Source of the DNA: Novosphingobium sp.
Lineage (GTDB): Bacteria; Pseudomonadota; Alphaproteobacteria; Sphingomonadales; Sphingomonadaceae
Direction: 5' to 3'
Length of the DNA: 64,000 nt
Assembly: GCF_019748365.1 (NCBI RefSeq)
Contig: NZ_JAIEPN010000035.1
Location: forward strand, 46,911-110,910
Shown here: piece after piece, positions 17,074 to 48,491 of the stretch
Numbering within the stretch: position 1 is the stretch's first letter
Layout: each line of letters opens with the position of its first letter
Made by a program: the position numbers and the translations under genes
The notes under the pieces: generated by a model
What the model was told of the DNA's origin: nothing
Seen by the model: the letters and a program-made list of their open reading frames with translations, nothing else
Database searches by the model: none

Positions 17074-17181
17074 CGCTCTTTCCCTTAATCGCTCGGTTAA
17101 GGGCATGGCTAAGCCAGCCTTGCCTGCTTGGCAAGCGGGTTCAGCCGGTCCTCACAAAAGCGCCAAGGTTCAGCCCAGGTA

Positions 17182-18147: not shown

Positions 18148-18204
18148 GTTCTTCGTCCCCCCTCTTCGCGTCCGGCTTGTCGTGCCGGTTCGCCTATCCT
18201 GCGC

Positions 18205-22077: not shown

Positions 22078-22157
22078 CTATGGCAAACTCCTCATCCGGG
22101 CTGCTTCACGAAAGCGCCCGAAGGCTCCCTAGACCCGAATGCCTTGGGCTTCAGCAC

Positions 22158-22170
22158 GCATAAGTATGCA
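22158..22170. promoter_or_regulatory. Putative LacI (MalR-type) operator upstream of zwf
   Basis: GCATAAGTATGCA, one mismatch to the palindrome GCATACGTATGC derived from sites at 33352 and 34614. Confidence 0.6.
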
Positions 22171-22188
22171 AGTTGGAATGGACAAGCG

Positions 22189-28641: not shown

Positions 28642-30188
28642 GCAGCAGCGCCCAGGTTGAGCGACGGCGCGGCGCAGTGGCGCGCGATGAAATCGGCGTG
28701 ACCGGGATAGCGCGCAACCTCGCGGGTATAGAGCGCGTTCAGCGTTTCGAGGTAGGACGTGAGGTCGGCCTCGTCGATCGTGTCTGCCAGCGCATGGCTG
28801 CGTTCGGGCACGATGCCCTGCCCGGCCATAACCTGGAACCAGCCCACTTCGCCGAACAGCTCGTCGCCATGGCGGAAGATGTGGCCATTGGCGCGGAACA
28901 GCTCGATCCGCTCGGCGAGGCTGTCGGGCAGCGGCATTTCGCGGCACGCCTGCCAGAACGGTTCGGGCCGCTGGTTCACGTGGTAGTGCAGCACGATGAA
29001 ATCGCGGATGCGCTCCATCTCGAACGTGAACTGACGGTTGTACTCGTCGCGCGCGACCTGCGTCTGGTCCTTGCCGGGGAGGAACTTGAGGATGCGCGAG
29101 ATGGCCGACTGGATGAGGTGAATGCTGGTCGATTCCAGCGGTTCGAGGAAGCCGCTGGAAAGGCCGACCGCGATCACGTTTCCGCGCCACGCCTCGGTGC
29201 GGCGTCCGGTGGTGAAGCGGATGGGGCGTGGATCGGCCAGCGCGGGCGCATCGAGATGCGCGAGCAGGCTCTCCGCCGCCTCGTCGTCCGAGGTGAAAGC
29301 GCTGCAATAGACGCGGCCGTTGCCGGTGCGATGCTGCAGCGGAATGCGCCATTGCCAACCTGCCGCGTGCGCGGTGGCGCGGGTATAAGGCGTGAAGTCT
29401 TCCACCCGCCCGCTCGGCACCGCCAGCGCGCGGTCGCAGGGCAGCCAGTTGGTCCAGTCGACATAACCCGCGCCCATGGTGCCGCCGATGAGGAGGCCGC
29501 GGAAACCGGTGCAATCGATGAAGAGGTCGCCGGAAATCTCTTCACCAGAGGCGAGGACAAGCGATGTGATGTCGCCGTTGAGCGGATCCTGCCGGACCTC
29601 GCCGATCCTGCCTTCGCGGCGCGTGACACCCCGGCTTTCCGCGAACTGGCGCAGGAAAGCGGCATAGAGCCCCGCATCGAAGTGGAAGGCATGCGGCATT
29701 TCGGGGACATTGCGGCTGGTAAGCGGCCCCCCGCGATGCATGCGCCCCGCGCGCGCGGCGACTTCGTTGATGGCATAATCGCCATGCGGGCCGGCAATGC
29801 CGAGACGGCGGCCGCGCGACCAGTAGTGATGGAAGGCGCAAAGCCCGAGATCGCGGCCGACATCGCCGAAGGCGTGCATGTAGCGCTCGCCCGGTGCGCC
29901 CCAGCCAACGAACTCGATCGCCAGCTTGAAGGTCGCCTGCGTCGCGCGGATAAAGGCATCTTCATCGAGGCCGAGCGCCTGGTTGAACATGCGGATCTGG
30001 GGGATCGTTGCTTCGCCAACGCCGACTGTGCCGATCTCTTCGGATTCGACTAGCGTGACGGTGAAGCCGGTATCAAGGAAGTGCCCGAAGGCTGCCGCTA
30101 CCATCCACCCGGCCGTGCCGCCGCCAGCCACGACGATGCGCACCGGACCGGGGTCACTCGCGCTGCCGCTGGTCTCAGTGCTGCTCAT
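28638..30188 (-). CDS. Tryptophan halogenase family flavoprotein
   Basis: GGGTAG, GVGEATIP, ATFKLAI (catalytic Lys), WQWRIP, FLEPLEST. Confidence 0.9.
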   Translation of the reverse strand: MSSTETSGSASDPGPVRIVVAGGGTAGWMVAAAFGHFLDTGFTVTLVESEEIGTVGVGEATIPQIRMFNQALGLDEDAFIRATQATFKLAIEFVGWGAPGERYMHAFGDVGRDLGLCAFHHYWSRGRRLGIAGPHGDYAINEVAARAGRMHRGGPLTSRNVPEMPHAFHFDAGLYAAFLRQFAESRGVTRREGRIGEVRQDPLNGDITSLVLASGEEISGDLFIDCTGFRGLLIGGTMGAGYVDWTNWLPCDRALAVPSGRVEDFTPYTRATAHAAGWQWRIPLQHRTGNGRVYCSAFTSDDEAAESLLAHLDAPALADPRPIRFTTGRRTEAWRGNVIAVGLSSGFLEPLESTSIHLIQSAISRILKFLPGKDQTQVARDEYNRQFTFEMERIRDFIVLHYHVNQRPEPFWQACREMPLPDSLAERIELFRANGHIFRHGDELFGEVGWFQVMAGQGIVPERSHALADTIDEADLTSYLETLNALYTREVARYPGHADFIARHCAAPSLNLGAAA

Positions 30189-30352
30189 CGCAGGCTCCCT
30201 GTGGTCCGAATGATGGGGCGGTCCGGATGGTGAATCTCGCCACCGCTTGGCAGTCCGCCGCGAAGGCAGACGCGGCGCGGCGGGCGCGGCTGACCGAAGT
30301 GCGGGCAACCAGCCAAGGTGTCTTGTTGGTTTCAGGCATCGGCGGAGGGTAC

Positions 30353-30386
30353 CGGGCGGATGGACTTGCAGCAAGCCATCCGCCCG
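30353..30386. terminator. Strong stem-loop just downstream of the TBDR gene
   Basis: CGGGCGGATGG-A-CTTG-CAG-CAAG-CCATCCGCCCG. Confidence 0.6.
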
Positions 30387-30401
30387 AACCCCGCATAGGT
30401 A

Positions 30402-33236: not shown

Positions 33237-33348
33237 GGAAATCAGATCTCCCCCATGCGGCCAGATCGTGGCCTCTACGTTGTCGGAACGCGATTTTTTC
33301 GCATTCAGTACGAGGTGTTGGGTAGAACCGGCCTGCTCGGACACGAAT

Positions 33349-33366
33349 ATGGCATACGTATACCAT
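33349..33366. promoter_or_regulatory. LacI-type operator in the divergent TBDR/lacI promoter
   Basis: Near-perfect CG-centred palindrome ATGGCATACGTATACCAT. Confidence 0.7.
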
Positions 33367-33544
33367 CGGGATTCCGCGGGGTTAGCGCACTCCATGAGGC
33401 CAAATCGCCACGCTTCAGACCTGCCGGACTCGCCGAAGGCACTGAGTCCTAGGGGGCAATTGCATCCATGCATTTCCATGCGTAAGCTACCAACCTGCCG
33501 ACCATGCGGGGAAAACCGCGGCGGCGTGGAGGAGGTTGCACGCG

Positions 33545-34579
33545 ATGGGCCGCAGGCCTTCCAACAAGCCGACCAGTTTCGACATCGCCTATCTGGCGGG
33601 GGTTTCGCAGCCGACGGTGAGCCGGGCGCTGCGCGGCAGCAAGTCGGTCAGCCTCGCCACGCGGCAGAAGATCGAGGCGATTGCTAGGCAGCTGGGCTAT
33701 ACGGTCGACAAGAACGCATCCTCGCTGCGCTCGCAGCGCTCGAACACGCTGGCGCTGCTGTTTTTTGAGGATCCGACCCCTGACGAATCCGGCATCAATC
33801 CCTTCTTTCTGGCAATGCTCGGCTCGATCACGCGGCACTGCGCGGCGCGAGGGCTTGATCTGCTCATTTCGTTCCAGCGGCTCGATGATGACTGGCACAA
33901 GCGGTATCAGGATAGCCACCGGGCCGATGGGCTGATCCTGCTCGGCTACGGCGATTACACGCTCTACGAAAGCCGGCTGCGCCAATTGGTGCGCAGCGGC
34001 GCGCATTTCGTGCGCTGGGGCGCGGTGGAGCCCGACACCATTGGCGCTACGGTCGGATCCGACAATTTCGGTGCGGGGCGGCTCGCGGGTGAGCATCTGC
34101 TGGCGCGCGGGCGGCGGAAAATCGCGTTTCTGGGGCAGGCGGACAGCCATTATCCCGAGTTCAAGAACCGCTATGAAGGCCTTTTGCGCGCGGTGGAAAC
34201 GGCGGGGCTGACGCATGATCCGGACCTTGTCGTACCGGCCATTTCCTCGGAGGAACTGGGCTACCAGGCCGCGCGCAAGCTGCTCGCCAGTGGCAAGCCG
34301 TTCGATGCAGTCTTTGCCGCCAGCGACCTGATCGCCATCGGCGCGATGCGCGCGCTGGCCGAGGCAGGGCTCAGCGTTCCCGGCGATGTCGCGGTGGTCG
34401 GTTTCGACGATATTCCGGCGGCGAGCCTCACGTCGCCCCCGCTCACCACCGTGATGCAGGACATGCGCCACGCCGGTGTGGCGCTGGTCGAGACGGTCAT
34501 GGCGCAAGTCGAGGACAAGCCGCCGCCCTCGCCCTTCCTGCCCACCCGCCTCGTCGTGCGCGGCAGCACCGGCGGATAA
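33545..34579 (+). CDS. LacI family regulator (MalR/MalI-like)
   Basis: TSFDIAYLAGVSQPTVSRAL HTH, VVGFDD, PPLTTV. Confidence 0.93.
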   Translation: MGRRPSNKPTSFDIAYLAGVSQPTVSRALRGSKSVSLATRQKIEAIARQLGYTVDKNASSLRSQRSNTLALLFFEDPTPDESGINPFFLAMLGSITRHCAARGLDLLISFQRLDDDWHKRYQDSHRADGLILLGYGDYTLYESRLRQLVRSGAHFVRWGAVEPDTIGATVGSDNFGAGRLAGEHLLARGRRKIAFLGQADSHYPEFKNRYEGLLRAVETAGLTHDPDLVVPAISSEELGYQAARKLLASGKPFDAVFAASDLIAIGAMRALAEAGLSVPGDVAVVGFDDIPAASLTSPPLTTVMQDMRHAGVALVETVMAQVEDKPPPSPFLPTRLVVRGSTGG

Positions 34580-34587
34580 TCCTGCGC

Positions 34588-34626
34588 TGCATATCAATGC
34601 AGGCATATGGATGACATTCGTATGCA
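34588..34626. promoter_or_regulatory. Putative LacI operator(s) upstream of the MFS transporter
   Basis: ACATTCGTATGCA at 34614-34626 and TGCATATCAATGCA at 34588-34601. Confidence 0.55.
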
Positions 34627-34720
34627 TTGCTGCCCAGAGGGTCATGCTCGCCTAGGGACAAGGCAGAGATAACAAAGCAGATGCCCCGGTAATCCGGGCG
34701 CATCGGGGGAGCCGAACCGC

Positions 34721-36193
34721 GTGACCACTCGCCAGAAACCGCAACAGACCTTCTGGGGGCTGTGGAACGTGAGCTTCGGCTTCTTCGGCATACAGCTCGC
34801 CTTCGGGCTGCAGAACGCCAACATCAGCCGCATTTTCCAGTCGCTCGGCAGCAGCGTCGACGAACTTGCCTTCCTGTGGATCGCCGGACCGGTGACGGGG
34901 CTGATCGTGCAGCCGCTGATCGGGCATTATTCGGACCGCACCTGGGGCCGGTTCGGGCGGCGGCGGCCCTACTTCGTGGCGGGCGCGGTGCTTTCGGCAC
35001 TGGCACTACTGGGCCTGCCGCAGGCGGGCGTGCTGCTGCTGGCCGCCGCATTCCTGTGGCTGCTCGATGCCTCGCTCAATATCGCGATGGAGCCGTTCCG
35101 CGCCTTCGTGGGCGACATGACGCCCGATGACCAGCGCGCGCAAGGTTTTGCGCTGCAGACCTGGTTCATCGGCGCGGGCGCGGTGATCGGCAGCCTGCTG
35201 CCGGCGGTTTTCACGCACTTCGGCATTGCGAACACGGCGCCTGAAGGCGTCATCCCCGATTCCGTGCGGCTCAGCTTCATCATCGGCGCTGCCGCGATGG
35301 TGCTGGCGGTGGCGTGGACCGCCTTCAGCGTGCGCGAATACAGTCCCGAGGAAATGGCAGCGTTCAACGGCGAACATGTCCACACTGCGCAGCCTGGGCA
35401 GGCGCTGGTCTATTCGCCGCGCGGGCCGATGTGGCTGCTGATCGGCGCGGGTCTGCTTACGATTGTGCGCGAGCTGGATCTCGACAAGCAGCTCTATGTG
35501 CTTGGCGGCGGGCTGGTCGCCTTCGGCACGGCGCAGATCGTGCTGCGCGCGACAAAAGCCAAGGGCGCGCTGGCGGAGATCATGAGCGACCTTGCACAGA
35601 TGCCTGCGCAGATGCGGCAACTGGCGGTGGCGCAGTTCTTCACCTGGACCGGACTGTTCATCCTGTGGATCTACGCGACCCCGGTCGTCACCAAGTACGC
35701 CTTCGGAGCGAACGACACCACCGGCGCGGCCTATAATGCGGGCGCGGACTGGGTCGGCGTGATGTTCGCGTTCTACAATGGTGTCGCAGCGCTCGCCGCG
35801 TTCCTTCTCCCCGTGCTGGCAAAGCGCATCGGCAATGCGCGCACGCATGCGCTGTGCCTGCTTGGCGGCGGCGGCGGCCTCCTGATGCTGCTTGTGCTGC
35901 GCGACCCGTGGCTGCTGCTGCTGCCGATGGTCCTTGTCGGCGTGGCCTGGGCCTCGATCCTCGCGATGCCCTACGTGATCCTGACCCGCGTGCTGCCGCC
36001 ACACAAGTTCGGCATCTACATCGGCGTGTTCAACATCTTCATTGTCGTGCCGCAGCTGATGGTCGCGACGATCATGGGCGGGGTGATCCGCAGCTTCTTC
36101 CCGACCGAGCCCAAGTGGACGATGCTGGTGGGCGCCGTTGTCATGGCCGCCGCCGCGCTCGCCATGCTGCGCGTGCGCGAAGAGCAGGCCTAA
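34721..36193 (+). CDS. MFS sugar transporter (MalY/sucrose-maltose GPH-like)
   Basis: NVSFGFFGIQ, VQPLIGHYSDRT, GRRRPY, MEPFRAFVGD, FNIFIVVPQ. Confidence 0.88.
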   Translation: MTTRQKPQQTFWGLWNVSFGFFGIQLAFGLQNANISRIFQSLGSSVDELAFLWIAGPVTGLIVQPLIGHYSDRTWGRFGRRRPYFVAGAVLSALALLGLPQAGVLLLAAAFLWLLDASLNIAMEPFRAFVGDMTPDDQRAQGFALQTWFIGAGAVIGSLLPAVFTHFGIANTAPEGVIPDSVRLSFIIGAAAMVLAVAWTAFSVREYSPEEMAAFNGEHVHTAQPGQALVYSPRGPMWLLIGAGLLTIVRELDLDKQLYVLGGGLVAFGTAQIVLRATKAKGALAEIMSDLAQMPAQMRQLAVAQFFTWTGLFILWIYATPVVTKYAFGANDTTGAAYNAGADWVGVMFAFYNGVAALAAFLLPVLAKRIGNARTHALCLLGGGGGLLMLLVLRDPWLLLLPMVLVGVAWASILAMPYVILTRVLPPHKFGIYIGVFNIFIVVPQLMVATIMGGVIRSFFPTEPKWTMLVGAVVMAAAALAMLRVREEQA

Positions 36194-37036: not shown

Positions 37037-37672
37037 TCAGCCCTGCCAGACCCAGTAGCGCGGCCCGAAGCGGGCTTCGAGTTCGGTGAGCTTGGCCTTG
37101 TGGATGGCCTGAATGGCGGCCGGCGTCGTCGCCTCATCCGCCGGAACTTCCTCAATCCGCACGCTGGTCGGATCCTCGTAGAGATGTTCGCCGGCAAGGC
37201 GGGCCTTGTCGTCATAGGGCCAGACAAAGGCCTGACGGCTCGAGACGTGGTAGAGCGCATCGGCCTTGGGCGCGTCATAGCCCATGGCGGCAAGGTCTGC
37301 GCCCTTGGCGAGCTGGTGGAAGGTGATCTCGTCGCAGATCCCCCAGTCGTTCACTGCGAGGCGGTCGTCGGAGTGCCAGAGCACGGCCTGCCCGACGCTG
37401 TTGTAGAAGCCTTTCACGCCTTCCTTGCCCTCGATCACCGCAGGGTTGGCGCCCCATGTGACCCGGTAGACCGGATGATCGACCATCATGTCGCTGGCGG
37501 TGATATCGTCATAGAGACCCGCGCCTTCGAGGTGCACGTGGCGCCAGAAGTTGAGCAGGATCGCCTTGTGCAGCGGGTTCGTCGTGGCGCCATACAGCGC
37601 CTCGGTGGGGTTCATGCATTCGAATACCGCGCGTTCGATGGCGTTGCTCGGCAGGGTCGTCGCGATGTTCAT
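37037..37672 (-). CDS. SnoaL/NTF2-like protein, possibly LdpA-related
   Basis: NPLHKAILLNFWRHVHLEGAGLYDDITASDMMVDHPVY and LAGEHLYED; family from memory. Confidence 0.6.
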   Translation of the reverse strand: MNIATTLPSNAIERAVFECMNPTEALYGATTNPLHKAILLNFWRHVHLEGAGLYDDITASDMMVDHPVYRVTWGANPAVIEGKEGVKGFYNSVGQAVLWHSDDRLAVNDWGICDEITFHQLAKGADLAAMGYDAPKADALYHVSSRQAFVWPYDDKARLAGEHLYEDPTSVRIEEVPADEATTPAAIQAIHKAKLTELEARFGPRYWVWQG

Positions 37673-37695
37673 CGGCCTCTCCTTTTGTCTCTTGC

Positions 37696-38703
37696 TCAGG
37701 TGCCCGGCGCGATCAGCACCTTGCACTGCTCGGTGCGGCGGCGGAGCGCTTCGAACACGGTGGGTGTGCTGCCAAGCGGGATGGTTTCGGTGACGAGGAG
37801 GCGCGGTTCGGCTGCACCCCGGTCCAGCGCATCGAGTGCGGCCTGGTACTCGTGCGTGGTGAAGAAAGCCGAGGTGACGAGGCGCACTTCCTTCGAGAGC
37901 ATGGCGAAGCTGTTGAAGGTATCGGGCATGGTGCACAGGCCCAGCAGCACAATAGTGCCGCGTGCGCGGACCTGCTCGACGCCTTGTGCAATGAGGCCGG
38001 GGACACCCACGCATTCGAATACAATGTCGGCTTTTCCGCCCAAGGCGCGTTCGGAGGCGCCGACGGGATCGGTGCGGTCCGCAATGAAATCATGCGCGCC
38101 CATAGCAAGCGCGCGGTCCTGCTGCCAGGTGGCGACATCCTGCACGACAACGCGCCCTGCCCCCATGCGGCGGGCCCAGAAGGCGGTGGCAAGGCCGATC
38201 GGCCCCGCGCCGAGGATCAGCACCTTGTCGCCGATGCGCATGCCGGCCATCGCCACACCGTGGAGCGCGACCGCGAGCGGTTCGATGATCGCGCCATCGG
38301 CGAGGCTGGCGGATTTCGGCAGCTTCACGCATTGGTTCGGATGCGTGAGCGCATATTCGGCATAGCCGCCGCCTTGCAGCCCGAACTTGTCGCACCACGA
38401 GACATTGCCGGCGAGGCAGGCCGGGCAGGCGCCGCAGCTCTTGAGCGGGCTGACAGCGACGAGATCGCCCTTGGCGAGGCCCTCGACGCCCTTGCCAAGC
38501 TCGATGACTTCGCCCGCAAACTCGTGCCCCAGGATCGAGCCCGCGCCCTGGCCGTAAGCCGGGTCCTCGGTCATGTGGAGGTCCGAGCCGCAAATGCCGC
38601 AGCGGCCGACCTGTATCACCACTTCGCCCGCGCCGGGCACCGGGTCAGGCACGGTTTCAACCGCGAGCGGCTTGTGCAGGCCCTGCATGACGGCGGCGCG
38701 CAT
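37696..38703 (-). CDS. Zn-dependent medium-chain alcohol dehydrogenase
   Basis: CGICGSDLH, GHEFAG, CxxCxxC...C structural Zn site, GAGPIG. Confidence 0.9.
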   Translation of the reverse strand: MRAAVMQGLHKPLAVETVPDPVPGAGEVVIQVGRCGICGSDLHMTEDPAYGQGAGSILGHEFAGEVIELGKGVEGLAKGDLVAVSPLKSCGACPACLAGNVSWCDKFGLQGGGYAEYALTHPNQCVKLPKSASLADGAIIEPLAVALHGVAMAGMRIGDKVLILGAGPIGLATAFWARRMGAGRVVVQDVATWQQDRALAMGAHDFIADRTDPVGASERALGGKADIVFECVGVPGLIAQGVEQVRARGTIVLLGLCTMPDTFNSFAMLSKEVRLVTSAFFTTHEYQAALDALDRGAAEPRLLVTETIPLGSTPTVFEALRRRTEQCKVLIAPGT

Positions 38704-38715
38704 GGACTTTGCTCC

Positions 38716-39465
38716 TCAGTGCGCTGTCTGGCCGCCATCGATGGCGATGGTGGCGCCATTGATGAAGCTGGCCGCTTCGGAGCAGAGGTGCAGCACGGTG
38801 CCCGCAATCTCTTCGGGCTGCGCAGCGCGGCCGCTGACATTGCCGGCGAAGAAGGCGGCACGGAAATTCGGATCGTCCGCCCAGTGCTGCGTCATGGGCG
38901 TGACCACGAAGCCCGGTGCGATGGCATTCACGCGGATGTTTTGCTGCGCATACTCGACTGCCGCCGCCTTGGTGAGGCCGGAAACGGCGTGCTTCATCGC
39001 GCAGTAGACGCTCATGTTGGGGTCCGCGATCAGCGCACCGACGGACGCGGTGTTGACGATAGCCCCGCCGCCTACTTTGAGGAAATGGCGGATTTCCGCC
39101 TGCATCGCGAAGAACACGCCCTTGAAGTCGACGTCGATCGCGAGGTTCATTTCCTCGGGCGTCACTTCATGGATGGGGCGCTGCGGCGGAAGGACGCCGG
39201 CGTTGTTGAAGGCGGCGTCCATCCGGCCGTAGCGCTGGATGCAGGCTGCGACGAGCGCGTCCATTGCCGCGGCATCGGTGACGTTGGCGTGCTGGAAGGA
39301 AGCCTCCCCGCCAGCCTGCTTGATGATCGCGACTGTTTCTTCGGCGCGTGGGTCAATATCGCCGATGATCACTTTCGCGCCCGCCCCAGCAAACGCCACA
39401 CAGGCTGCGCGGCCGATGCCGGTGGCGCCGCCGGTGACGAGGACGGCCTTATCCGCAAAAGTCAT
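38716..39465 (-). CDS. SDR oxidoreductase
   Basis: TGGATGIG, NNAG, NTASVG, YCAMKH, RVNAIAPG; ATGA overlap. Confidence 0.9.
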   Translation of the reverse strand: MTFADKAVLVTGGATGIGRAACVAFAGAGAKVIIGDIDPRAEETVAIIKQAGGEASFQHANVTDAAAMDALVAACIQRYGRMDAAFNNAGVLPPQRPIHEVTPEEMNLAIDVDFKGVFFAMQAEIRHFLKVGGGAIVNTASVGALIADPNMSVYCAMKHAVSGLTKAAAVEYAQQNIRVNAIAPGFVVTPMTQHWADDPNFRAAFFAGNVSGRAAQPEEIAGTVLHLCSEAASFINGATIAIDGGQTAH

Positions 39466-40349
39466 TCGGTCCATGCGGCCTGCTCCCCCTTGGCGACGCG
39501 CGAGGAATTGCCGAGGAGGAAATCGCCGAGCACGTCGACCGCGTCCGGAAAGGCCTTCTTCACCTTGTCGCTGAGCTCGGCACTGTTCTTCGAGGCGGCC
39601 ACCAGCTTGGGCCACTCGGCAATGTAGCGCCGGGTGAATTCGAGGCCGGAGGCATCGTCGGGCAGGCCCGGCTTGTTGTGCCCCGCAACGACGATCTCGG
39701 GCTTCAGCGCGATAAAGCCGTCATTCGCCTTGCCCCACGCGGCGATGGCCGCAGCATCGTGCTCGCCCATCCACAGGAACATCTGGTTGTAGACGAGATC
39801 GCCGGGGAAGAGCGCCTTGATCGAGGGTGCCCAGAGCGCGGTGGCATGGACATGGTCGCCCTGCACCGGGCCGAGGACCTTGAGCTCCTTGCCCTCGAGC
39901 ATGATCGTGTCGCCTTCCATCGCGGCGGGCGCGGTGGGATGGCGTGGCGAATTGACGCCGAGCACCGGATACCAGCGCTTCACCTTGAACGGGAGCGAGC
40001 GCCAGATGTCGGCAGCGACCACCGGGTGCGCGACGATTTTCGCATCGGGAAACGCATCCTGCAGCACTTCCATCGCGAAGAAATGATCGGGATGATCGTG
40101 CGTCACGAAGATGGTCGTGAGGCGCTTGCCGCTATCGAGCACCATGGCGACGACGCGGTGAGCATCGGCGCGGGTGAACGGCGCGTCGACAAGGACCGCG
40201 TCCTTCTCGCCCTTGATCAGCGCGATATTGGCGAACAGCGAGCCGCCGCTGGTGCGCAAGGTTTCGACGGTGAGTGGCTTTTCCTGCGCGTGGGCGGTGG
40301 TGGCGAGAAGCGCGGCGGCAAGCGCCAGAAGGGTTTTCCTGATCATCAT
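39462..40349 (-). CDS. Secreted metallo-beta-lactamase-fold hydrolase
   Basis: Sec signal (ATTAHA|Q), VLVDA, THDHPDH, H, PGDL, GH metal motifs. Confidence 0.85.
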   Translation of the reverse strand: MMIRKTLLALAAALLATTAHAQEKPLTVETLRTSGGSLFANIALIKGEKDAVLVDAPFTRADAHRVVAMVLDSGKRLTTIFVTHDHPDHFFAMEVLQDAFPDAKIVAHPVVAADIWRSLPFKVKRWYPVLGVNSPRHPTAPAAMEGDTIMLEGKELKVLGPVQGDHVHATALWAPSIKALFPGDLVYNQMFLWMGEHDAAAIAAWGKANDGFIALKPEIVVAGHNKPGLPDDASGLEFTRRYIAEWPKLVAASKNSAELSDKVKKAFPDAVDVLGDFLLGNSSRVAKGEQAAWTE

Positions 40350-41965
40350 GCAATTCCTGATTTGCCGGGGGCGAGGATATGGTTGGGGTCGAGCGCGTCC
40401 TTGAGCTTTGCGTTGAACGCGCGGTTCACGGCGCCGAATTGCTGCGCAACAAGGTCCATCGCGTGGACGCCGGTGCGGTAGCTGGCCCAGCCCCGTTCAC
40501 CGAAGCCGGTGACGAGTTCGCGGTAACAATCGTCAGCGCGCTTTTCCTCCGCCGGATCGGACTTGTCGTAGAGCAGCGCGATGATGTGGTGGAGTTCGCG
40601 GCTGCCGATGGCGAAAGCGGCGGTGTAGTCGAACCCGTGCTTGCCCAGGATCTGCTTGGCGAGCTCGACCTGCCCTTGCGTCTCGCTGCCCTTGGCGGGC
40701 GCGACGGGGGCGAACCATGCAAGGCCGCCGCCATTTCCGCGCCAGCGCGCGAGGCCGATCTCGTCCAGATTGAGGCCGCCCTGCATGAGGGTTGCGTGGT
40801 GGTGGAACCACGGGTTGTCGCCCATTTCGGCTTCGGTGAGGACTTCTCCGTCGATGGCGGCGAAGGCGGCGCGGATGATCTTCTCGCTTTCGGCGATCAT
40901 CCCTTCCGTGCCGTAGAGCGCGATATAGGTGTTCCACATGCCGAGGTTGTTGGCTGTGGCTGCCTTGGAGACTGCTTCATCCGTGATCGGGCCTGCGCCG
41001 TCCCACACCTCGCCGCGGCGCTTGAACATGGCGAGCTGATAGGCACCGCCCATCATCAGGACGACATTGGGGACAATGTTGGCAATGCGCAGCGGACGCA
41101 TCGCCTCGACGATCCGGGCGACGTCCTCCATCTTCCTGTGGCGGATGACGAAGGGCTTGTAGACCGGCGGCGCGGGCATCAGCCACATGCCCATCTTGGT
41201 GACCACGCCGAAGTTCGACTGGGTGAACAGGCCATCGAGATAAGGCCCGTAGCCCCACTTGAACGCCTGCCAGGCGGACGGATTGCGCGTCGAGCCCATG
41301 CCGGTGCGCAGGATCTCGCCATCCGCAAGGACGACTTCCATGCCGCACTGGACCATAAAGTGCTCGCCATAGGGCGTATAGCCGACACCGCGATCGAGCG
41401 TATTGCCGACCGGGCCGACCACCGGGCCCACGGTGGGTACGTCGATCCACAGCGGCAGGTTGTTTTCGACCAGATAGTCCTTGAGCTGGCGGTAGGTGAC
41501 GCCGGGCTCGACCAGCGCGGTGCAGAGCTCGGGATCGACCGAGATGATGCGGTTCATGCGCTTGAGGTCGAGGATCATCTGCCCCGGCATCGCGGTGGTC
41601 GTCTGGCCATAGCCCATGTTCTTGCCGGTGGAGACCGGCCAGATCGGCTGGCGGAACTGGTTGGCGATCTTCACGATGGCCTGCACCTGCTCGACGTTCT
41701 CGGGGCAGACCGCGCCGACGGGCACGTGCTTGCCGTAAGGATCGGGCGTGTAGGACTTCTTCCACGGCGCAACCGCTTCAGGATCGGCGAAGACCCATTC
41801 ATCGCCGACGACCTTGCGCATGGCGGCGACGGCGCCCTTGAAGTCGGCCTTCTTCACGCCGGGCGCGAGGACGGCCTTCGCCTTTGCACCGGTGCCGAGG
41901 CCCACAGCGGCGGCCGAAGCGGCGCCTGCGCCGAGAAGCGAGCGTCGGTCGAGACTGACGGTCAT
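40346..41965 (-). CDS. Tat-exported VAO/PCMH-family FAD oxidoreductase (flavocytochrome large subunit)
   Basis: Twin-arginine DRRSLLG; STGKNMGYG, EPGVTY, GNTLDRGVG, QSNFGVVTKMG, DPNHILAPGK. Confidence 0.9.
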   Translation of the reverse strand: MTVSLDRRSLLGAGAASAAAVGLGTGAKAKAVLAPGVKKADFKGAVAAMRKVVGDEWVFADPEAVAPWKKSYTPDPYGKHVPVGAVCPENVEQVQAIVKIANQFRQPIWPVSTGKNMGYGQTTTAMPGQMILDLKRMNRIISVDPELCTALVEPGVTYRQLKDYLVENNLPLWIDVPTVGPVVGPVGNTLDRGVGYTPYGEHFMVQCGMEVVLADGEILRTGMGSTRNPSAWQAFKWGYGPYLDGLFTQSNFGVVTKMGMWLMPAPPVYKPFVIRHRKMEDVARIVEAMRPLRIANIVPNVVLMMGGAYQLAMFKRRGEVWDGAGPITDEAVSKAATANNLGMWNTYIALYGTEGMIAESEKIIRAAFAAIDGEVLTEAEMGDNPWFHHHATLMQGGLNLDEIGLARWRGNGGGLAWFAPVAPAKGSETQGQVELAKQILGKHGFDYTAAFAIGSRELHHIIALLYDKSDPAEEKRADDCYRELVTGFGERGWASYRTGVHAMDLVAQQFGAVNRAFNAKLKDALDPNHILAPGKSGIA

Positions 41966-42279
41966 TGGCCATGCTCCTTGGGATCGGCAGCGCTGTTCTG
42001 GACCCAGACAGCGAGCGCCTTCAGCTCGGCGGGGGTGATTTCGGTCGGACGGAAGGCGGGCATCGCATTGAGGCCATGGCGGACCTGATACTCGACCGCC
42101 TCGGCAGGAAGGGCGCGCCCGCGGATCACCGGGCCGACATTCTTGCCGTGGCAATAGCCGCAGACGGCCGAATAGACCTGTTCCGGGCTGCGCTGCGCCT
42201 GCACTTCGCCCAGCTTCTGCGCCGCCTGCGCGGTTCCGGCGAGCGCGAGGCCCGCGGCTAGAAGAGCGGCCCGCTTCAT
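41962..42279 (-). CDS. c-type cytochrome subunit (PchC-like)
   Basis: Signal peptide, CGYCH, VGPVIRGR, VRHGLNAMPAF; ATGA overlaps on both sides. Confidence 0.9.
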   Translation of the reverse strand: MKRAALLAAGLALAGTAQAAQKLGEVQAQRSPEQVYSAVCGYCHGKNVGPVIRGRALPAEAVEYQVRHGLNAMPAFRPTEITPAELKALAVWVQNSAADPKEHGQ

Positions 42280-43115
42280 TGGAATTTCCCCAGCATCATG
42301 CCTCCATCGATCACGACATGGCTTCCGGTCATGTAATCGGAAGCATCCGACGCCAGCAGCAAGGCCAGCGGTTTGAGTTGGTCCGTCTCCGCCACCGCGC
42401 CGAGCGGCACGATGGCATCCCACGCCTTGCGCGCGACAGGGTCCTTCTTGAGCCATCCGCCGCCGATATTGGTAACGAAGGGCCCGGGCGCGATGGCATT
42501 GATGCGGATGCGGAACTCGGCGAGTTCGAGCCCAAGCGCGCGGACCATGTGTAGCACGCCCGCCTTGGCCGGCATGTAGGGCAGGCCGACGATGGGTTCT
42601 GTGACGAGGCCTGCGTTGGAAGCGGTGCAGATGATCGAGCCGCCGCTGCGGCCATTGGCGCGGCCGGGCTGCTTCATCACGCGCACGGCGTTGCTCACGG
42701 TGTAGAACACGCCCGAGAGATTGACCGAAATCGACTTGTCCCAGCGCTTCGGGTCGTAGGTATCGACCTGGCCATCGGGATTGCGGTGGCCGCCCGGGTT
42801 CCAGAAGCCCGCCCCGGTATCGATGCCGGCATTCGCGAAGGCGATGTCGAGCCCGCCATAGGCCTTGGCGTGGGCGTCGAATGCGGCGGCGACGGCATCG
42901 AAATCGGAGACATCAAGGCGGCCGGCGCGGGCTTCATGCCCCGCCTCGCGCAGACGGGCGGCTTCCCTTTCGGCGCCTTCGCCGTCGATATCGGTAAGCG
43001 TGACGGCAGCCCCGGCTTCCGCCATCGCCTCGGCATAGGCGAGGCCGATGCCCGAGGCCGCGCCGGTGACCAGAGCACTGCGGCCCTTGATGTCAAAGCG
43101 GTCCAGAATTGCCAT
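42276..43115 (-). CDS. SDR oxidoreductase
   Basis: TGAASGIG, ANAG, CTAS, YMPAK, RINAIAPG. Confidence 0.9.
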   Translation of the reverse strand: MAILDRFDIKGRSALVTGAASGIGLAYAEAMAEAGAAVTLTDIDGEGAEREAARLREAGHEARAGRLDVSDFDAVAAAFDAHAKAYGGLDIAFANAGIDTGAGFWNPGGHRNPDGQVDTYDPKRWDKSISVNLSGVFYTVSNAVRVMKQPGRANGRSGGSIICTASNAGLVTEPIVGLPYMPAKAGVLHMVRALGLELAEFRIRINAIAPGPFVTNIGGGWLKKDPVARKAWDAIVPLGAVAETDQLKPLALLLASDASDYMTGSHVVIDGGMMLGKFQ

Positions 43116-43147: not shown

Positions 43148-44218
43148 TTATTCAGCGGCTTGCGGTTGTCGTTCTCGATCAATCAGGCGTTGCAGCATGC
43201 GGCGCGCGCGCACGCCGCCGCCGTCGCCGTTCAGGATGACGGGCCGCAGCTCCCAGAAGTCAGCGCCGCGCATCAGGCGGTGGCTGTCGCGGATGAGCGG
43301 CATGTCTTCCTGCTCGAACGCGAATTCGAGCGCGCCGCGCATGCCGGCGCTGAACTCCGCATCGCCCAGCGCGAAATCGCGTGCGGTGGCCCAGAAGTAG
43401 TGGGTGGTGTCCGGCGTTTCCGGCGTGAAGGCGTGGAGCGAGGGCAGCAAAGTGCAATCCTCGCGCGAGGTTCCCGGAGGCCCGGCACGGAAGTCGAAAT
43501 AGAGCACGGCGGGGGCGTGCCAGACGACCCAGCCATAGAAATCCTGCTTCACCCCGACCCGCCCGAGCATCCCGCCGATGCCGTCGGAGAGAGTGTCGTC
43601 GAGGCGGATGTATTCCGAGTGCACCGTTTCGCCGTCCTGCCAGAACTTTCGCTCGCCCTCGGTGAAGGCGGCGGCAACCAGTGCAGGGTGGACGAAGTTG
43701 GCGTGGCTGAGATCGAGGATATTGTCGCTGTAGAGCTCGTAGTGCCCCTCGGCGACGGTCGCGCCGCGCACGGCTTCCCACTTGGGATCAGACAGCCAGC
43801 TGAAATCGGGGATCAGCGCGGGATCGGCCTGTGCGGCATCGCCCATCCATATCCACAGCAAGGCATGGCGTTCGACAAGCGGATAGACGTGCAGCCGGTT
43901 TTCCGGGAGCTGGCCGCCGGGATGCGGGTTGTGGACGCATGCCCCGGTGCCGTCGAAGCGCAGGCCGTGGTAGGGGCACATGAGCGCGCCTTCCACCACC
44001 TTGCCCTTCCCCAGCGGCGCCCAGCGATGCGGGCAGCGCCCGGTGACGGCATTGGCCTTGCCCTCCCCGTCGCGGAACAGCGCGACGGGTTCCTCAAGGA
44101 AAACCCGCTGCTGCGGAGCTTCGCCCAGATCTGAGGCCCAGCCTGCAACATACCACGTGTTGCGCAAGTACGTGCCCTGTGGCTCAGGACCGAGTTTGGG
44201 GACCCCAGCAGCGTTCAT
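43148..44218 (-). CDS. Rieske non-heme iron oxygenase alpha subunit (VanA-like)
   Basis: CPH...CPYH Rieske motif; DNILDLSHANFVH mononuclear Fe motif; FEQED. Confidence 0.9.
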   Translation of the reverse strand: MNAAGVPKLGPEPQGTYLRNTWYVAGWASDLGEAPQQRVFLEEPVALFRDGEGKANAVTGRCPHRWAPLGKGKVVEGALMCPYHGLRFDGTGACVHNPHPGGQLPENRLHVYPLVERHALLWIWMGDAAQADPALIPDFSWLSDPKWEAVRGATVAEGHYELYSDNILDLSHANFVHPALVAAAFTEGERKFWQDGETVHSEYIRLDDTLSDGIGGMLGRVGVKQDFYGWVVWHAPAVLYFDFRAGPPGTSREDCTLLPSLHAFTPETPDTTHYFWATARDFALGDAEFSAGMRGALEFAFEQEDMPLIRDSHRLMRGADFWELRPVILNGDGGGVRARRMLQRLIDRERQPQAAE

Positions 44219-44230
44219 GCCGGCCCCTCC

Positions 44231-44764
44231 TCAGAGATAGAGCTGCTTGTTGATCGGGATGTTGTGCTCCCTGCAATAGGTCTCGTAGTGGTTCATGAAC
44301 CACCAGACATCGAGCGTTTCGACGTGGTTGCCGTGCTCGTCGAAGAACTCGTTGGCGCCCTGCATGTGGAACAGCGCCTTCATCCCGTTTGGATCATCGG
44401 TGACAAGCGTGTGGGCGGTGCCCGGCGTTTCGGTGATGAACTCGCCCGGCTTGCAGACCCAGTCGTACTCCAGATAGCGGAACGAGCCTTCGAGCCCGAT
44501 CGCCCAGACCCGCCCGCGGTGCTTGTGCGTGCCGATGACACCCGGGCCCTTGATCCACAGGATGTTGACGTAGACGTTGTCGCGCACGTCGAACGCCAGG
44601 TGCCGGATCGCGGCGTTGTCGCCGAAGGGCACCCACGGGCTCTCGGCTTCCGAAGCGCCGACGTAAGTGCCTTCGACGCCCTTGGACTTGATCAGGGCGC
44701 CGTAAAGCTCGGGAACGTCGACGATCTTGTAGGCGCCTGAAGGCGGCGCGGTCATTGTGGCCAT
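44231..44764 (-). CDS. 2,4'-dihydroxyacetophenone dioxygenase family cupin (divergent paralog 1)
   Basis: PWVPF, GTHKHRG, RYLEYDWV, ETPGTAHTL. Confidence 0.8.
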   Translation of the reverse strand: MATMTAPPSGAYKIVDVPELYGALIKSKGVEGTYVGASEAESPWVPFGDNAAIRHLAFDVRDNVYVNILWIKGPGVIGTHKHRGRVWAIGLEGSFRYLEYDWVCKPGEFITETPGTAHTLVTDDPNGMKALFHMQGANEFFDEHGNHVETLDVWWFMNHYETYCREHNIPINKQLYL

Positions 44765-44777
44765 TGTGCCTGACCTC

Positions 44778-45314
44778 TCAGAGATAGAGCTTGGGATTGA
44801 TGGGAATGTCGTTTTCCCGGCAATAGGTCTCGTAGTGGTTGATGAACCACCAGACGTCCGAGGTATCGACGTACTTGCCGTTCTCGTCGAAGAACTCGAT
44901 CGGGCCCTGCATCCACCCGAACAGCTTCACGCCTTCGGGGTGCTCGGTGACGAGGGTGTGGCTTTCGCCAGGCACTTCGAGGATCAGCCCGCCAGGCGAT
45001 GCAACCCAGTCGTATTCGAGATAGCGCACGCTGCCTTCGAGGCAGACCATTACGATCGTGCCGCGATGGAGGTGCGTGCCGATCGTGCCGGGGCTCTTGA
45101 CCCACAGGATGTTGGAGAAGATGCCCTGCCGTACATCGAAGGCGAGGTGCTTGATCGCCGCGTTGTCGCCGAAGGGCACCCAGGGGCTGTCGACGTCGGT
45201 CTGGGCGTCGATATAGCGACCGCCCGGGCTCAGCCGCGCGACGAGGTCGCGGTGGGCAAAACCGACATCGACGATTTCCTTCTTGCTCGAAGGCGGTGCA
45301 GTCATCGCGTTCAT
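44778..45314 (-). CDS. 2,4'-dihydroxyacetophenone dioxygenase family cupin (divergent paralog 2)
   Basis: PWVPF, GTHLHRG, RYLEYDWV, EVPGESHTL. Confidence 0.8.
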   Translation of the reverse strand: MNAMTAPPSSKKEIVDVGFAHRDLVARLSPGGRYIDAQTDVDSPWVPFGDNAAIKHLAFDVRQGIFSNILWVKSPGTIGTHLHRGTIVMVCLEGSVRYLEYDWVASPGGLILEVPGESHTLVTEHPEGVKLFGWMQGPIEFFDENGKYVDTSDVWWFINHYETYCRENDIPINPKLYL

Positions 45315-45328
45315 GAGAAGCGCTCCTT

Positions 45329-45862
45329 TCAGCGGATCAGCGTATCGACGTAATCGGCGCCGATGCCGACCCGGTCGTAATGCTCGCGCGCATTCTTGAT
45401 GTAGTCAAACACATCGAAATGCCCGGTGGTGTTGCCATCATCGTCCAGCCACATGAGCGGGCCGGAGACAACGAAGAACACCTTCATCGGGTCTTCGTGT
45501 TCGTAGCAGACGAGCGTGTGGCTCTCGCCCGGCGTTTCGTAGATGAAGTCGCCAGCGGTCGCGGTCCATTCGTGCTCGAGATAGGCCCACTTGCCGCTGA
45601 TCGTGTAGGCCCAGATCGGATGCGGGTGGTAGTGGCGGTTCACCAGGCCCGCCGACTTCGACATGAGCACATCGGCCCACATGTTCTTGGTCGGGCTGAT
45701 CCAGACGGGCTTGGAGCTCACCGTCTCGCTGATCGGCACCCAGTAGCGTTCGTCGCCTTCCGCAATCTTGGACATGTAGACTTCGGGAAGACCGCCCTCC
45801 CGGAACACCTTCTCGACCGGCTTGATGCCTTTCCAGAATTCGGAATGCGCGGTTTCAGGCAC
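45329..45862 (-). CDS. dad: 2,4'-dihydroxyacetophenone dioxygenase (canonical DAD-like)
   Basis: SEFW, DERYWVP, AGLVNRHYHPH, YTISGKWAYLEH, ETPGESHTL, REHYDRVGIGAD; closely matches the Alcaligenes/Burkholderia DAD as recalled; GTG start. Confidence 0.82.
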   Translation of the reverse strand: MPETAHSEFWKGIKPVEKVFREGGLPEVYMSKIAEGDERYWVPISETVSSKPVWISPTKNMWADVLMSKSAGLVNRHYHPHPIWAYTISGKWAYLEHEWTATAGDFIYETPGESHTLVCYEHEDPMKVFFVVSGPLMWLDDDGNTTGHFDVFDYIKNAREHYDRVGIGADYVDTLIR

Positions 45863-45926: not shown

Positions 45927-48491
45927 TTAGAACTTCACGCCGAGCCTTGCGTACCATTCGGCCGGACGGCTGTAGGTGCCGTAAATCTGGCCGCCGGCGA
46001 GCTGGGCCTGACCGGTGGTCAGGTAGCGCTCGTTGGTGAGGTTGGTGCCGCCCACAGTCAGCTCCCAGTGGTTGCTGGGATCACGGTAGGTCACGCTCGC
46101 ATTGACAACGGTGGTCTGAGGACGCTGCAGCAGGAATGTCCGCTCGGTGTCGTTCCACAAGCTGCTGGTGAGAGTCACGTCACCCAGGAACACCAGGCTG
46201 CCGTGGTTGCCAAGGTCCGCCTCATAACGCGGGCTGAAGTTCCACTTGAACTTCGGCGTCTTGGGCAGCGCAGCGCCCTTGAACACACCGGCCTGGATCG
46301 GGGTCGGTGCGACGAACGAGTTGTTGCCTTCGCAGAACGCCGGGAAATTGCCGCCCTCGCCGCAGATCACGGTGTACTTCGCATCGGTGTAGCCGACCGA
46401 ACCGGTGAAGGTCAGGCCCTTCGCGGGCGCCGCCACGACTTCGACCTCGAAGCCGCGGATGCGGGCATTACCGGTGTTCTGCACAGTGGGCGAGATGCCC
46501 TTCTGCGAGTTCAGCTGGATGCCGGTATAGTCGGTGGTGAAGGCCGCCGCGTTGATCTGCAGGTGCCGGTCAAGCAGTTCGGACTTCACGCCGATTTCCC
46601 AGGTCGACGCCTCTTCCGGCCCGAAGCCCGGAGCAAACGGCAGCGGGTTCGACAGACGGGTGGTCCAGCCACCGGTCTTGTAGCCCTTCGACCAGCTACC
46701 ATAGACCATCACGTCGTCGGTCGGGTGGTACTGGAGCCCGACCTTGGGTGCAAAGTTGTTGAACTTCTTGTTCTGCGTTCCGGCGATGTAATAGCGCAGC
46801 GGCTGACCGGGATTGGGGAACCCGCCAGCGGCCTGGCACGCGGCCGAGATCGTGGAGATGTTCTCGCAGCCCGGAACGCCGAGGAAGTTGAGGATCTTGT
46901 AGGTCAGGCCGTTGCGATCGGACTGAAAGCCTTCGAAGTCCTTGTCTTCATGCGTATAGCGGCCGCCCAGCGTGATGCCGAACTTCTCGGTGAACTTGTA
47001 GTCGACCTGGCCGTAGAACGCGAAGTTCTTCGTCTTGAGGTCGTTCGGGCCGTCGATCTGGAGCAGGCCTTCCGCGAACGTCACGTAATCGTGCAGATCG
47101 CCCGATTCCGTGAAGTAGTAGGCGCCGAACACGTAATTGAGCTTCTTCTCCAGCGCGCTGCCGGCCACCTGCAGTTCCTGGCTGAACTGCTTCTGGTTCA
47201 TGGTGAAGCTGGTGTGGAGGAAGTTCAGCGGCGAGTTGTCGAGGTCCATACCGGTGTTCCAGTGGAGCTCGCGGTAAGCGGTGATCGACTTCACCGTGGC
47301 ATTGCCGATGTCGTACTCCATCGTCAGCGCGCCGCCGCCGGACTTCAGCTTGGAGTAGTTGTTGCCGTTGGCGTAGCTGGTGTCGATGTTGTTCGTCACG
47401 AACCGGCTGTCATAGGGCAGGCGGTTGTTGGTCGGATCGGCATCGGCATTCACGCCGAAGATCGACGGCAAATCGTTGATTCCGTTAAGACCACCGCGAT
47501 TGCCGAACAGCGCGAAGGAGGGAGGACCACCTCCGCAAGTGGTCGTGTCACCCGGTGCTGCGATCACGCCCGCAATCGCGCAGTTGTAAGTCGCGGCAAA
47601 GACCGGCGCGAAGACCGAGATGACCTTGTTGGCGATCTGCGAGGTATCGACCCGCGAATAGTCGCCCGAAAGCACCGCGCGGAATGCGCCGCCGTTGTTG
47701 AAGCGGATCTTGCCGCGCAAGTTCCAGTTGTTGTCGCCACCTTCGGTGCCAAGCCCGATATTGTTGTAGCTGGCAGCCTTGAACCTGGTGATCGGATCAG
47801 AGGCAAAGTTCTCCGCACCCGGGAATGGCAGGCGGTGGAGGTAGCCGTCACGAGTCTTGACCGAGAAGGCGAGCGAGGACGACAGGCTGTCCGTCAGCGG
47901 CATATCAACCGTGCCGCGCGCCGAGAACAGCTTGTAGCTACCGGTCATCACATCACCGCGGAAGCGGAATTCGTTGCCCGGATCATGGGTGACGATCGAG
48001 ATCGCGCCGCCGATGGTGTTGCGGCCAAAGAGAGTGCCCTGCGGACCCTTGAGAACCTCGACGCGCTCCACGTCAGGCAGTTCCTGGTTCGCGCCGACCG
48101 AGCGGGCGAGGTAGACGCCGTCGAGATAGATGCCGACGCCCGGATCGATGTTGAAGGCAAAGTCGTTGGCGCCGATGCCGCGAATGTAGGCCGAGAGCAC
48201 CGACGACGAGCCCGAGAACGGCGTGCCGGCATCAAGCGTGACGTTGGGCGCGATGTTCGACAGCGAAGCGACGCTGGTCACCGCACGCTCCTGCAGCGCG
48301 CTCGCCGTGAAGGCCGAGATCGAGATCGGCACGTCCTGGACGTTTTCCGAGCGCTTCTGCGCGGTGACGACGATTTCGGCGATGCCGCCTTCGGGCGCGG
48401 CTTCAGCCTGGGCCTGCGGTGCGGATTGTGCCAGCGCCGGCGAGGCCAGTGTGGCCGCAAGCACGGCAAGCGATACCGATGCGAGTCTCAT
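45927..48491 (-). CDS. TonB-dependent receptor (aromatic island)
   Basis: Signal peptide, EIVVTAQKRSENVQDVPISI, RVEVLKGPQGTLFGRNTIGG, C-terminal VKF. Confidence 0.93.
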   Translation of the reverse strand: MRLASVSLAVLAATLASPALAQSAPQAQAEAAPEGGIAEIVVTAQKRSENVQDVPISISAFTASALQERAVTSVASLSNIAPNVTLDAGTPFSGSSSVLSAYIRGIGANDFAFNIDPGVGIYLDGVYLARSVGANQELPDVERVEVLKGPQGTLFGRNTIGGAISIVTHDPGNEFRFRGDVMTGSYKLFSARGTVDMPLTDSLSSSLAFSVKTRDGYLHRLPFPGAENFASDPITRFKAASYNNIGLGTEGGDNNWNLRGKIRFNNGGAFRAVLSGDYSRVDTSQIANKVISVFAPVFAATYNCAIAGVIAAPGDTTTCGGGPPSFALFGNRGGLNGINDLPSIFGVNADADPTNNRLPYDSRFVTNNIDTSYANGNNYSKLKSGGGALTMEYDIGNATVKSITAYRELHWNTGMDLDNSPLNFLHTSFTMNQKQFSQELQVAGSALEKKLNYVFGAYYFTESGDLHDYVTFAEGLLQIDGPNDLKTKNFAFYGQVDYKFTEKFGITLGGRYTHEDKDFEGFQSDRNGLTYKILNFLGVPGCENISTISAACQAAGGFPNPGQPLRYYIAGTQNKKFNNFAPKVGLQYHPTDDVMVYGSWSKGYKTGGWTTRLSNPLPFAPGFGPEEASTWEIGVKSELLDRHLQINAAAFTTDYTGIQLNSQKGISPTVQNTGNARIRGFEVEVVAAPAKGLTFTGSVGYTDAKYTVICGEGGNFPAFCEGNNSFVAPTPIQAGVFKGAALPKTPKFKWNFSPRYEADLGNHGSLVFLGDVTLTSSLWNDTERTFLLQRPQTTVVNASVTYRDPSNHWELTVGGTNLTNERYLTTGQAQLAGGQIYGTYSRPAEWYARLGVKF

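Follow-up and report, generated by a model that had tools for sequence, protein, structure and literature searches.

A 64,000-nucleotide stretch of DNA from Novosphingobium sp. (contig NZ_JAIEPN010000035.1; the whole stretch is referred to as the window) contains two overlapping genes that encode a flavoprotein subunit of 539 amino acids (positions 40346 to 41965) and a PchC-like monoheme cytochrome c subunit of 105 amino acids (41962 to 42279). These genes, and the features located below within their gene row, lie on the minus strand. Our analysis indicates that the pair probably encodes a periplasmic flavocytochrome c of the p-cresol methylhydroxylase (PCMH)/eugenol hydroxylase (EUGH) branch of the vanillyl alcohol oxidase (VAO)/PCMH family, closely related to the published protein nsVAO. 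A PCMH-type enzyme without covalent flavin adenine dinucleotide (FAD) is already published and proven by a crystal structure, and the window locus leaves this picture unchanged. New here are the extension of the trait to an entire clade, the nesting of this clade among tyrosine-bearing relatives, and a passing model of the complex, the last of which is weak evidence because the PchF-PchC complex has already been solved (Protein Data Bank [PDB] entry 1DII).

The flavoprotein and the positions of the flavin link

The flavoprotein contains the Pfam domains PF01565 (FAD_binding_4; 3e-28) and PF02913 (FAD-oxidase_C cap; 1.4e-8), and it aligned with PchF (1DII_A) with an E value of 2e-165 in HMMER. 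Its best solved match was PDB 9FFK/9FGE, deposited as "FAD-binding oxidoreductase" (E value of 1.7e-251), with 351 of the 499 aligned positions identical (~70%); 9FFK and the window protein both carry a GL(A/L)RWRG..GGLAWFAPV segment. These entries correspond to nsVAO of Novosphingobium sp. (WP_124809348.1), described by Guerriere et al. (ACS Catal 2025; PMC7617285), who chose it for study because it lacks both residues that link the flavin. The protein is thermostable, has L409 and L418 at the linking positions and T181/V182 at the flavin N5, and its 1.7-Å crystal structure contains noncovalent FAD (PMC7617285). Since the description of nsVAO, the covalent-link residue no longer defines membership in the 4-phenol-oxidizing VAO/PCMH family. 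In the window protein, the domains of this family and the phenolate triad are present, and the residue for covalent 8-alpha flavinylation (the Tyr384/His422 equivalents) is absent. We class it as a member of the EUGH/PCMH branch of the nsVAO type.

Equivalences with PchF were taken from the HMMER alignment to 1DII_A, with residues counted by chain numbering, and that with VAO His422 was taken from Guerriere et al., whose alignment and Table 1 equate His422 with nsVAO Leu418 (PMC7617285). The sequence-only reading of this DNA had proposed that both linking residues are replaced. The segment concerned, DEIGLARWRGNGGGLAWFAPV, is present in the translated open reading frame (ORF) 40346-41965, and the PchF segment that had been quoted for comparison agrees with the PDB sequence. 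The position of PchF Tyr384, which forms the 8-alpha-O-tyrosyl FAD link, is occupied by Ala406, whose codon (GCG, read from 40750 to 40748) lies exactly where it had been placed. The position of the covalent His of VAO is occupied by Leu415 (CTT, 40723 to 40721), which is identical to and in register with nsVAO Leu418. The active-site Glu427 of PchF (in VAEFIV) stands opposite Ala450 (in TAAFAI; codon at 40616 to 40618), a position that corresponds to VAO Thr457. The tyrosine of GYG, the HH pair, and the tyrosine of SYR, said to remain, are Tyr119, His459/His460, and Tyr496/Arg497, respectively. Tyr119, Tyr496, and Arg497 are the equivalents of the phenolate-binding residues Tyr95, Tyr473, and Arg474 of PchF, and PchF Glu380 is kept as Glu402. 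The pair facing the flavin N5 is Thr178-Val179 (41429 to 41434), equivalent to Thr181/Val182 of nsVAO. As the residues, the codons, and the gene coupling described below all match, every statement of the earlier observation was correct. Its central inference, a noncovalent-FAD flavocytochrome of the PCMH branch, agrees with the noncovalent FAD of nsVAO, which is ~70% identical and has the same substitutions, and with the coupled cytochrome; it is right but, nsVAO being already published, restates a known result for a close relative.

Homologues were sought in one genome per species, which resulted in 245 relatives, and the best 80 were studied. They consist of 77 loci from sphingomonads and allies (59 to 97% identity) and 3 from Betaproteobacteria (54 to 55%). 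Residue counts refer to an alignment of 81 sequences, namely, the window protein and the proteins of the 80 loci. Tyr119, His459/His460, and Tyr496/Arg497 were invariant in 79 to 81 of these sequences, the remainder being incomplete sequences.

A covalent FAD link to some residue besides the two canonical ones appears extremely improbable. Other members of the VAO family do use an N-terminal His or a 6-S-cysteinyl link, and the window protein differs from nsVAO at ~30% of positions. Against this, the crystal structure of nsVAO is without any link, and the only invariant cysteines, C207 and C480, are also found in PchF. No other Tyr, His, or Cys that is specific to the clade occurs at the linking positions in any of the 77 sphingomonad homologues, and no alternative covalent site of these three types was found at or near these positions among the 81 aligned sequences. 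By analogy with nsVAO, we infer that FAD is noncovalent in the window protein.

The cytochrome partner and the electron acceptor

The cytochrome has a Sec-type leader, a CGYCH heme-binding motif (42148 to 42162), and a Met-Pro-Ala-Phe segment. It matched Pfam Cytochrome_CBB3, and its best solved match was PchC, the cytochrome subunit of PCMH (1DII_C; E value of 7.5e-10). Its stop codon and the start codon of the flavoprotein overlap in an ATGA sequence (41962 to 41965), which bears out the translational coupling of a PchC-like cytochrome that had been reported from the sequence. Almost all loci for which upstream sequence is available have a gene for such a cytochrome immediately upstream of that for the flavoprotein, and the same ATGA overlap was present in ~70 of the 80 loci. 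The residues C40, C43, and H44 and the methionine (CxxCH and Met-Pro) were invariant.

We also modeled the complex, using both subunits in their mature forms (residues 32 to 539 of the flavoprotein and 20 to 105 of the cytochrome) together with FAD and heme, and alignments of 21 rows each. The model scored 0.95, compared to 0.00 for the best of three controls; as a similar complex, 1DII, is solved, the pass may reflect likeness. Of the 80 solved complexes in the calibration of this score, 58 attained the mark of 0.95, as did 2 of 110 mismatched pairs, and our user-made alignments and the ligands included in the model differ from the calibration setting. At least 95% of contacts coincided between model runs, and the pLDDT (predicted local distance difference test) of the partner was at least 92. 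The predicted interface includes residues 398 to 414 of the flavoprotein, that is, the loop with Ala406, against residues 42 and 43 of the heme motif, and this arrangement would fit an exit of electrons, as in PCMH, via the flavin's 8-alpha edge. The near-universal translational coupling, read from the gene sequences, is a stronger argument for a physiological flavocytochrome than the complex model. As a separate observation, four loci that encode 92 to 94% identical homologues (L008, L011, L012, and L013) have a five-residue insertion, RWRGAKEGGGGGGLAWF, between the Tyr384 and His422 positions, and the loop that carries it is the one predicted to touch the cytochrome.

These data suggest the following sequence of events. 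The flavoprotein would fold around FAD in the cytoplasm without a covalent bond, since Ala406 and Leu415 replace the link-forming Tyr384 of PchF and His422 of VAO. The folded holo-flavoprotein would then be exported by the twin-arginine translocation (Tat) system, as implied by a leader with two consecutive arginines (RR leader; residues 1 to 31, MTVSLDRRSLLGAG...AKAKA; 41873 to 41965) that was read from the sequence and in which R7 and R8 were invariant in 21 aligned homologues. In the periplasm it would dock to its own Sec-exported cytochrome c, made from the same message by way of the ATGA overlap. By analogy with the family, a 4-hydroxyphenyl substrate would be held as the phenolate by Tyr119, Tyr496, and Arg497, a benzylic hydride would be transferred to the flavin N5, with Glu402 as the likely base, and the p-quinone methide would be hydrated or tautomerize to give an alcohol, aldehyde, or ketone. 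Electrons would leave the flavin at its dimethylbenzene edge and pass the loop of residue 406 on their way to the heme and the respiratory chain, so that the cytochrome would be the physiological electron acceptor. Given the Val at N5, a slow reactivity with oxygen is probably retained, as in nsVAO.

Several points weigh against the assignment as a flavocytochrome. The window protein is known from sequence alone, and the complex model cannot tell true binding from likeness to 1DII. Furthermore, nsVAO is a slow oxidase that turned over vanillyl alcohol with O2 at a kcat of 0.29 per s and was slower with bovine cytochrome c (0.06 per s), and its authors named it an oxidase (PMC7617285). The Thr/Val pair at N5, as judged from the sequence, resembles the oxygen-reactive VAD variant P151V, in which Val beside N5 opens a tunnel to the flavin's re side. 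From these data it might be concluded that the enzyme is physiologically an oxidase that reduces O2 to hydrogen peroxide and that the adjacent cytochrome is dispensable or has another role. We consider this improbable. The cytochrome gene overlaps that of the flavoprotein in most of the species-level loci, with the heme ligands kept, and bovine cytochrome c is a poor stand-in, as stated for VAD in the same study (PMC7617285). The rate of nsVAO with oxygen is ~30-fold below that of the true oxidase EUGO, which was included in that study (PMC7617285), and the complex model passes, with the caveat of its likeness to 1DII. The published nsVAO is one member of a large sphingomonad clade, in which nearly all full-length members have an export leader and a coupled cytochrome; the presence of both across the clade argues that "oxidase" is a laboratory label.

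Distribution, gene row, and candidate substrates

The closest homologues among the best 80 were found in Novosphingobium fuchskuhlense and in freshwater Novosphingobium metagenome-assembled genomes (97% identity). In the sphingomonad set, the Tyr384 position is occupied by Leu (39 sequences), Ala (24), Val (11), or Ile (2), and Tyr is restricted to the three betaproteobacterial proteins. At the His422 position, the sphingomonads have Leu (69), Ala (6), or Met (1) and the three betaproteobacterial proteins have Ser, and the N5 pair is Thr/Val, rarely Thr/Ile, in the former, compared to Ile/Pro in the latter. An RR leader was observed in nearly all full-length sphingomonad proteins, and it was absent from the Tyr-bearing relatives and from the Tyr-type representatives of a wider search.

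In a quick FastTree phylogeny, in which supports are local Shimodaira-Hasegawa (SH)-like values, the Tyr-less sphingomonad clade was monophyletic with a support of 100. Its nsVAO-like Leu subgroup enters the tree through loci L024 and L038, which stand in for nsVAO itself. A representative whose Tyr position is occupied by Phe forms the sister of the clade. The two branch from within Tyr-bearing sequences of the PCMH/EUGH type, which indicates a secondary loss of the covalent link. A Tat leader accompanies the absence of Tyr, which is a correlation only, and since the Phe-bearing sister is without a leader, the two are not strictly linked. The wider library search also retrieved four proteins outside the sphingomonad clade (P0003, P0007, P0008, and P0009; 42 to 57% identity) that are without both linking residues, the two positions being Phe/Ala, Leu/Asn, Leu/Asn, and Leu/Glu, respectively. 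The missing link is thus less rare in the PCMH/EUGH branch than the word "peculiar" implies, and noncovalent members may have arisen several times in this branch.

The same genome harbors two paralogues. One of them (L082; G000:C191:13911-15518) is also Tyr-less, with 66% identity and Met at both positions; it carries an RR leader and is paired, through an ATGA overlap, with a cytochrome c gene of its own, and it groups with locus L062. The other (L083; G000:C170:7552-9084) shares 37% identity, has His at the VAO His422 position, and is located directly downstream of a gene for a DUF3237 (PinX-like) protein. From the sequences, this arrangement looks like the published pinX-pinW pair, which encodes a lariciresinoate decarboxylase and an imperanene oxidase.

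The window has a GC content of ~65%, and the flavocytochrome pair belongs to a row of minus-strand genes that extends from 36 to 48.5 kb. At the head of this row is a gene for a TonB-dependent receptor (45927 to 48464), followed by three tandem cupin genes (44231 to 45862), a VanA-like Rieske oxygenase of 356 amino acids (43148 to 44218), and an upstream short-chain dehydrogenase/reductase (SDR) of 279 amino acids (42276 to 43115). Downstream of the pair are a secreted hydrolase of 295 amino acids with a metallo-beta-lactamase (MBL) fold (39462 to 40349), similar to the Vmh family, and a second, cytoplasmic SDR (38716 to 39465; likely start at 39465, alternative ATG at 39474). Besides the junction of the cytochrome and flavoprotein genes, ATGA overlaps were found between the upstream SDR and the cytochrome (42276 to 42279), the flavoprotein and the MBL-fold protein (40346 to 40349), and the latter and the second SDR (39462 to 39465). 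Judging from these four successive junctions, the five genes from 38716 to 43115 form one translationally coupled unit. The best NCBIfam match of the MBL-fold protein was the Vmh family, below the cutoff, and its PDB matches were weak; searches of PDB and NCBIfam with this protein and the two SDRs gave only generic matches that fixed no substrate. ORF 37037-37726 had no Pfam match. The aromatic gene row is bordered by a block for alpha-glucan utilization and the Entner-Doudoroff pathway (16291 to 36193), which contains genes for glucokinase, Edd, Pgl, Zwf, an esterase, a GH97 and two GH13 enzymes, a tryptophan-halogenase-like protein, a TonB-dependent receptor, LacI, and MFS proteins. Glycogen genes also adjoin the published nsVAO gene.

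Several of these neighbors are conserved. The TonB-dependent receptor and the three cupins are linked to the pair in 37 to 42 of the 80 loci, in several genera, with the cupins syntenic in 37. An SDR is linked in most loci, the type encoded at 38716 to 39465 being the most constant neighbor, and a homologue of the MBL-fold gene lies within the flanks in most loci. Genes for SDRs and for a Zn-dependent alcohol dehydrogenase flank the pair, joined in the closest genomes by that for the VanA-like Rieske oxygenase. These conserved neighbors offer concrete candidates in lignin-aromatic catabolism. In the known route for 4-ethylphenol, a flavocytochrome is followed by an alcohol dehydrogenase, the formation of 4-hydroxyacetophenone, and cleavage. 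By analogy, the gene context recalls this route, and our best guess for the substrate, a tentative one based on the gene order, is a lignin-derived 4-alkylphenol or guaiacol. The linked dehydrogenases would convert the resulting benzylic alcohol into a hydroxyphenyl ketone, and this ketone would supply the adjacent putative DAD-like cupins and the products of putative marK-acv genes. A beta-O-4 lignin model dimer induces both a DAD gene and a pchF/pchC cluster in Novosphingobium sp. MBES04, genes that may be orthologous to those of the window. Some considerations speak against this substrate: synteny is the sole basis of the guess, cupins are missing from about half of the loci, which keep only the cytochrome, flavoprotein, SDR, and MBL-fold genes, and 4-alkylphenols were not among the substrates tried on nsVAO (PMC7617285).

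The sequence-only reading had suggested an enlarged pocket for bulkier phenols or lignans, in the manner of pinoresinol hydroxylase. On this view, the pocket would have widened with Glu427 and the tyrosyl link gone, and lignans or dimers from lignin would be among its bulky phenolic substrates. We regard this as unlikely. Ala450 does take the place of Glu427, a TonB-dependent receptor heads the gene row, nsVAO was slow on every small substrate tried, vanillyl alcohol, eugenol, and 4-hydroxybenzyl alcohol all being turned over at low rates (PMC7617285), and the related flavocytochromes PinAB and PinVW act on pinoresinol and imperanene, respectively. However, eugenol hydroxylase, which acts on a small monomer, has Gly at the Glu427 position, so that Ala450 is not special; Ala or Gly is general in the eugenol hydroxylase clade. 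In addition, residue 406 would be located at the 8-alpha edge of the flavin and, in the model, at the interface with the cytochrome, rather than on the substrate side. PinH and PinW are only 34 to 37% identical to the nsVAO/PchF branch, and the genome has its own PinW-like gene, namely, that beside the DUF3237 gene. The remaining probability, beyond alkylphenols or guaiacols and lignans or dimers, goes to vanillyl-type alcohols or other compounds; the slow turnover by nsVAO would fit a natural substrate outside the set tried.

Orthology to the Pin enzymes was considered separately and rejected. PinW, the imperanene oxidase of Novosphingobium rhizosphaerae LY, is 34% identical to PchF, to be compared with the E value of 2e-165 obtained for the window protein; as for PinA/PinH, PinH is 36% identical to nsVAO and belongs to a separate clade.

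Returning to the flavocytochrome reading, we propose, as a rather doubtful extension of it, that the nsVAO clade is the periplasmic entry enzyme of a conserved, undescribed sphingomonad route rather than an oxidase family. A lignin-derived 4-alkylphenol, guaiacol, or dimer with such a side chain would enter via the linked TonB-dependent receptor, the noncovalent flavocytochrome would hydroxylate its benzylic carbon, the linked dehydrogenases would complete the conversion to the hydroxyphenyl ketone, and the putative DAD-like cupins or the putative MarK-Acv system would break down this ketone. If this holds true, the loss of the tyrosyl link went along with the gain of the Tat leader in the sphingomonad lineage.

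Comparison with known systems

The closest known system is nsVAO. The two proteins share the lack of a covalent-link residue at either position, Thr/Val at N5, Ala at the Glu427 position, the RR leader, and an adjacent gene for a putative cytochrome c, which for nsVAO is listed in Table S2 of the original study (PMC7617285); the window protein and proteins of the nsVAO type fall into the same monophyletic sphingomonad clade. They differ at the Tyr position, which is Leu409 in nsVAO and Ala406 in the window protein, and in the GWRDLHH motif of nsVAO and EUGH, which is GSRELHH in the window protein, with Trp replaced by Ser455 (codon 40601 to 40603). The same Trp-to-Ser difference distinguishes the Ala from the nsVAO-like Leu subclade. 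The gene neighborhoods are also different: the nsVAO gene is surrounded by glycogen genes, a TetR gene, and a hydrolase gene, whereas that of the window is accompanied by cupins, a Rieske oxygenase, SDRs, and an MBL-fold gene. Moreover, nsVAO was assayed without its own cytochrome and named an oxidase.

PchCF of Pseudomonas putida (1DII, 1DIQ, and 1WVE) has in common with the window pair the Tyr/Tyr/Arg triad, Glu380, the His-His pair, and the pairing of flavoprotein and cytochrome genes. In contrast, PchF has 8-alpha-O-tyrosyl FAD on Tyr384, Glu427, and Ala/Pro at N5, and its deposited chain is without an RR leader, which is present in the window flavoprotein. The published tree places nsVAO in the clade of EUGH, with which it shares 55% identity, and nsVAO is poor on eugenol (PMC7617285). 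EUGH itself (EhyAB of Pseudomonas sp.; Q8L385) resembles the window enzyme in having a small residue, Gly, where PchF has Glu427, Thr at the first of the two N5 sites, and a cytochrome partner, but its linking Tyr381 is retained and its second N5 site is Ile.

The coupled flavoprotein and cytochrome c pairs PinAB/PinH of Pseudomonas sp. SG-MS2 and PinVW of N. rhizosphaerae LY belong to the same family. PinAB and PinVW act on lignans through a quinone methide, and they form clades separate from the nsVAO branch. Strain LY also carries an nsVAO-type gene (locus L038), the product of which is 71% identical to the window protein.

The 4-ethylphenol methylenehydroxylase of P. putida JD1, and a PchCF-like enzyme together with Hped in Aromatoleum aromaticum EbN1, exemplify a route that starts with benzylic hydroxylation of a 4-alkylphenol by a flavocytochrome, after which an SDR makes hydroxyacetophenone. 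The logic of this route matches our guess for the substrate, and a linked SDR aligned with the structure of Hped (4URE) with an E value of 5e-49, one of many generic SDR matches. The flavoproteins of strains JD1 and EbN1 are, however, covalent tyrosyl flavoproteins, whereas the window enzyme is without a link residue.

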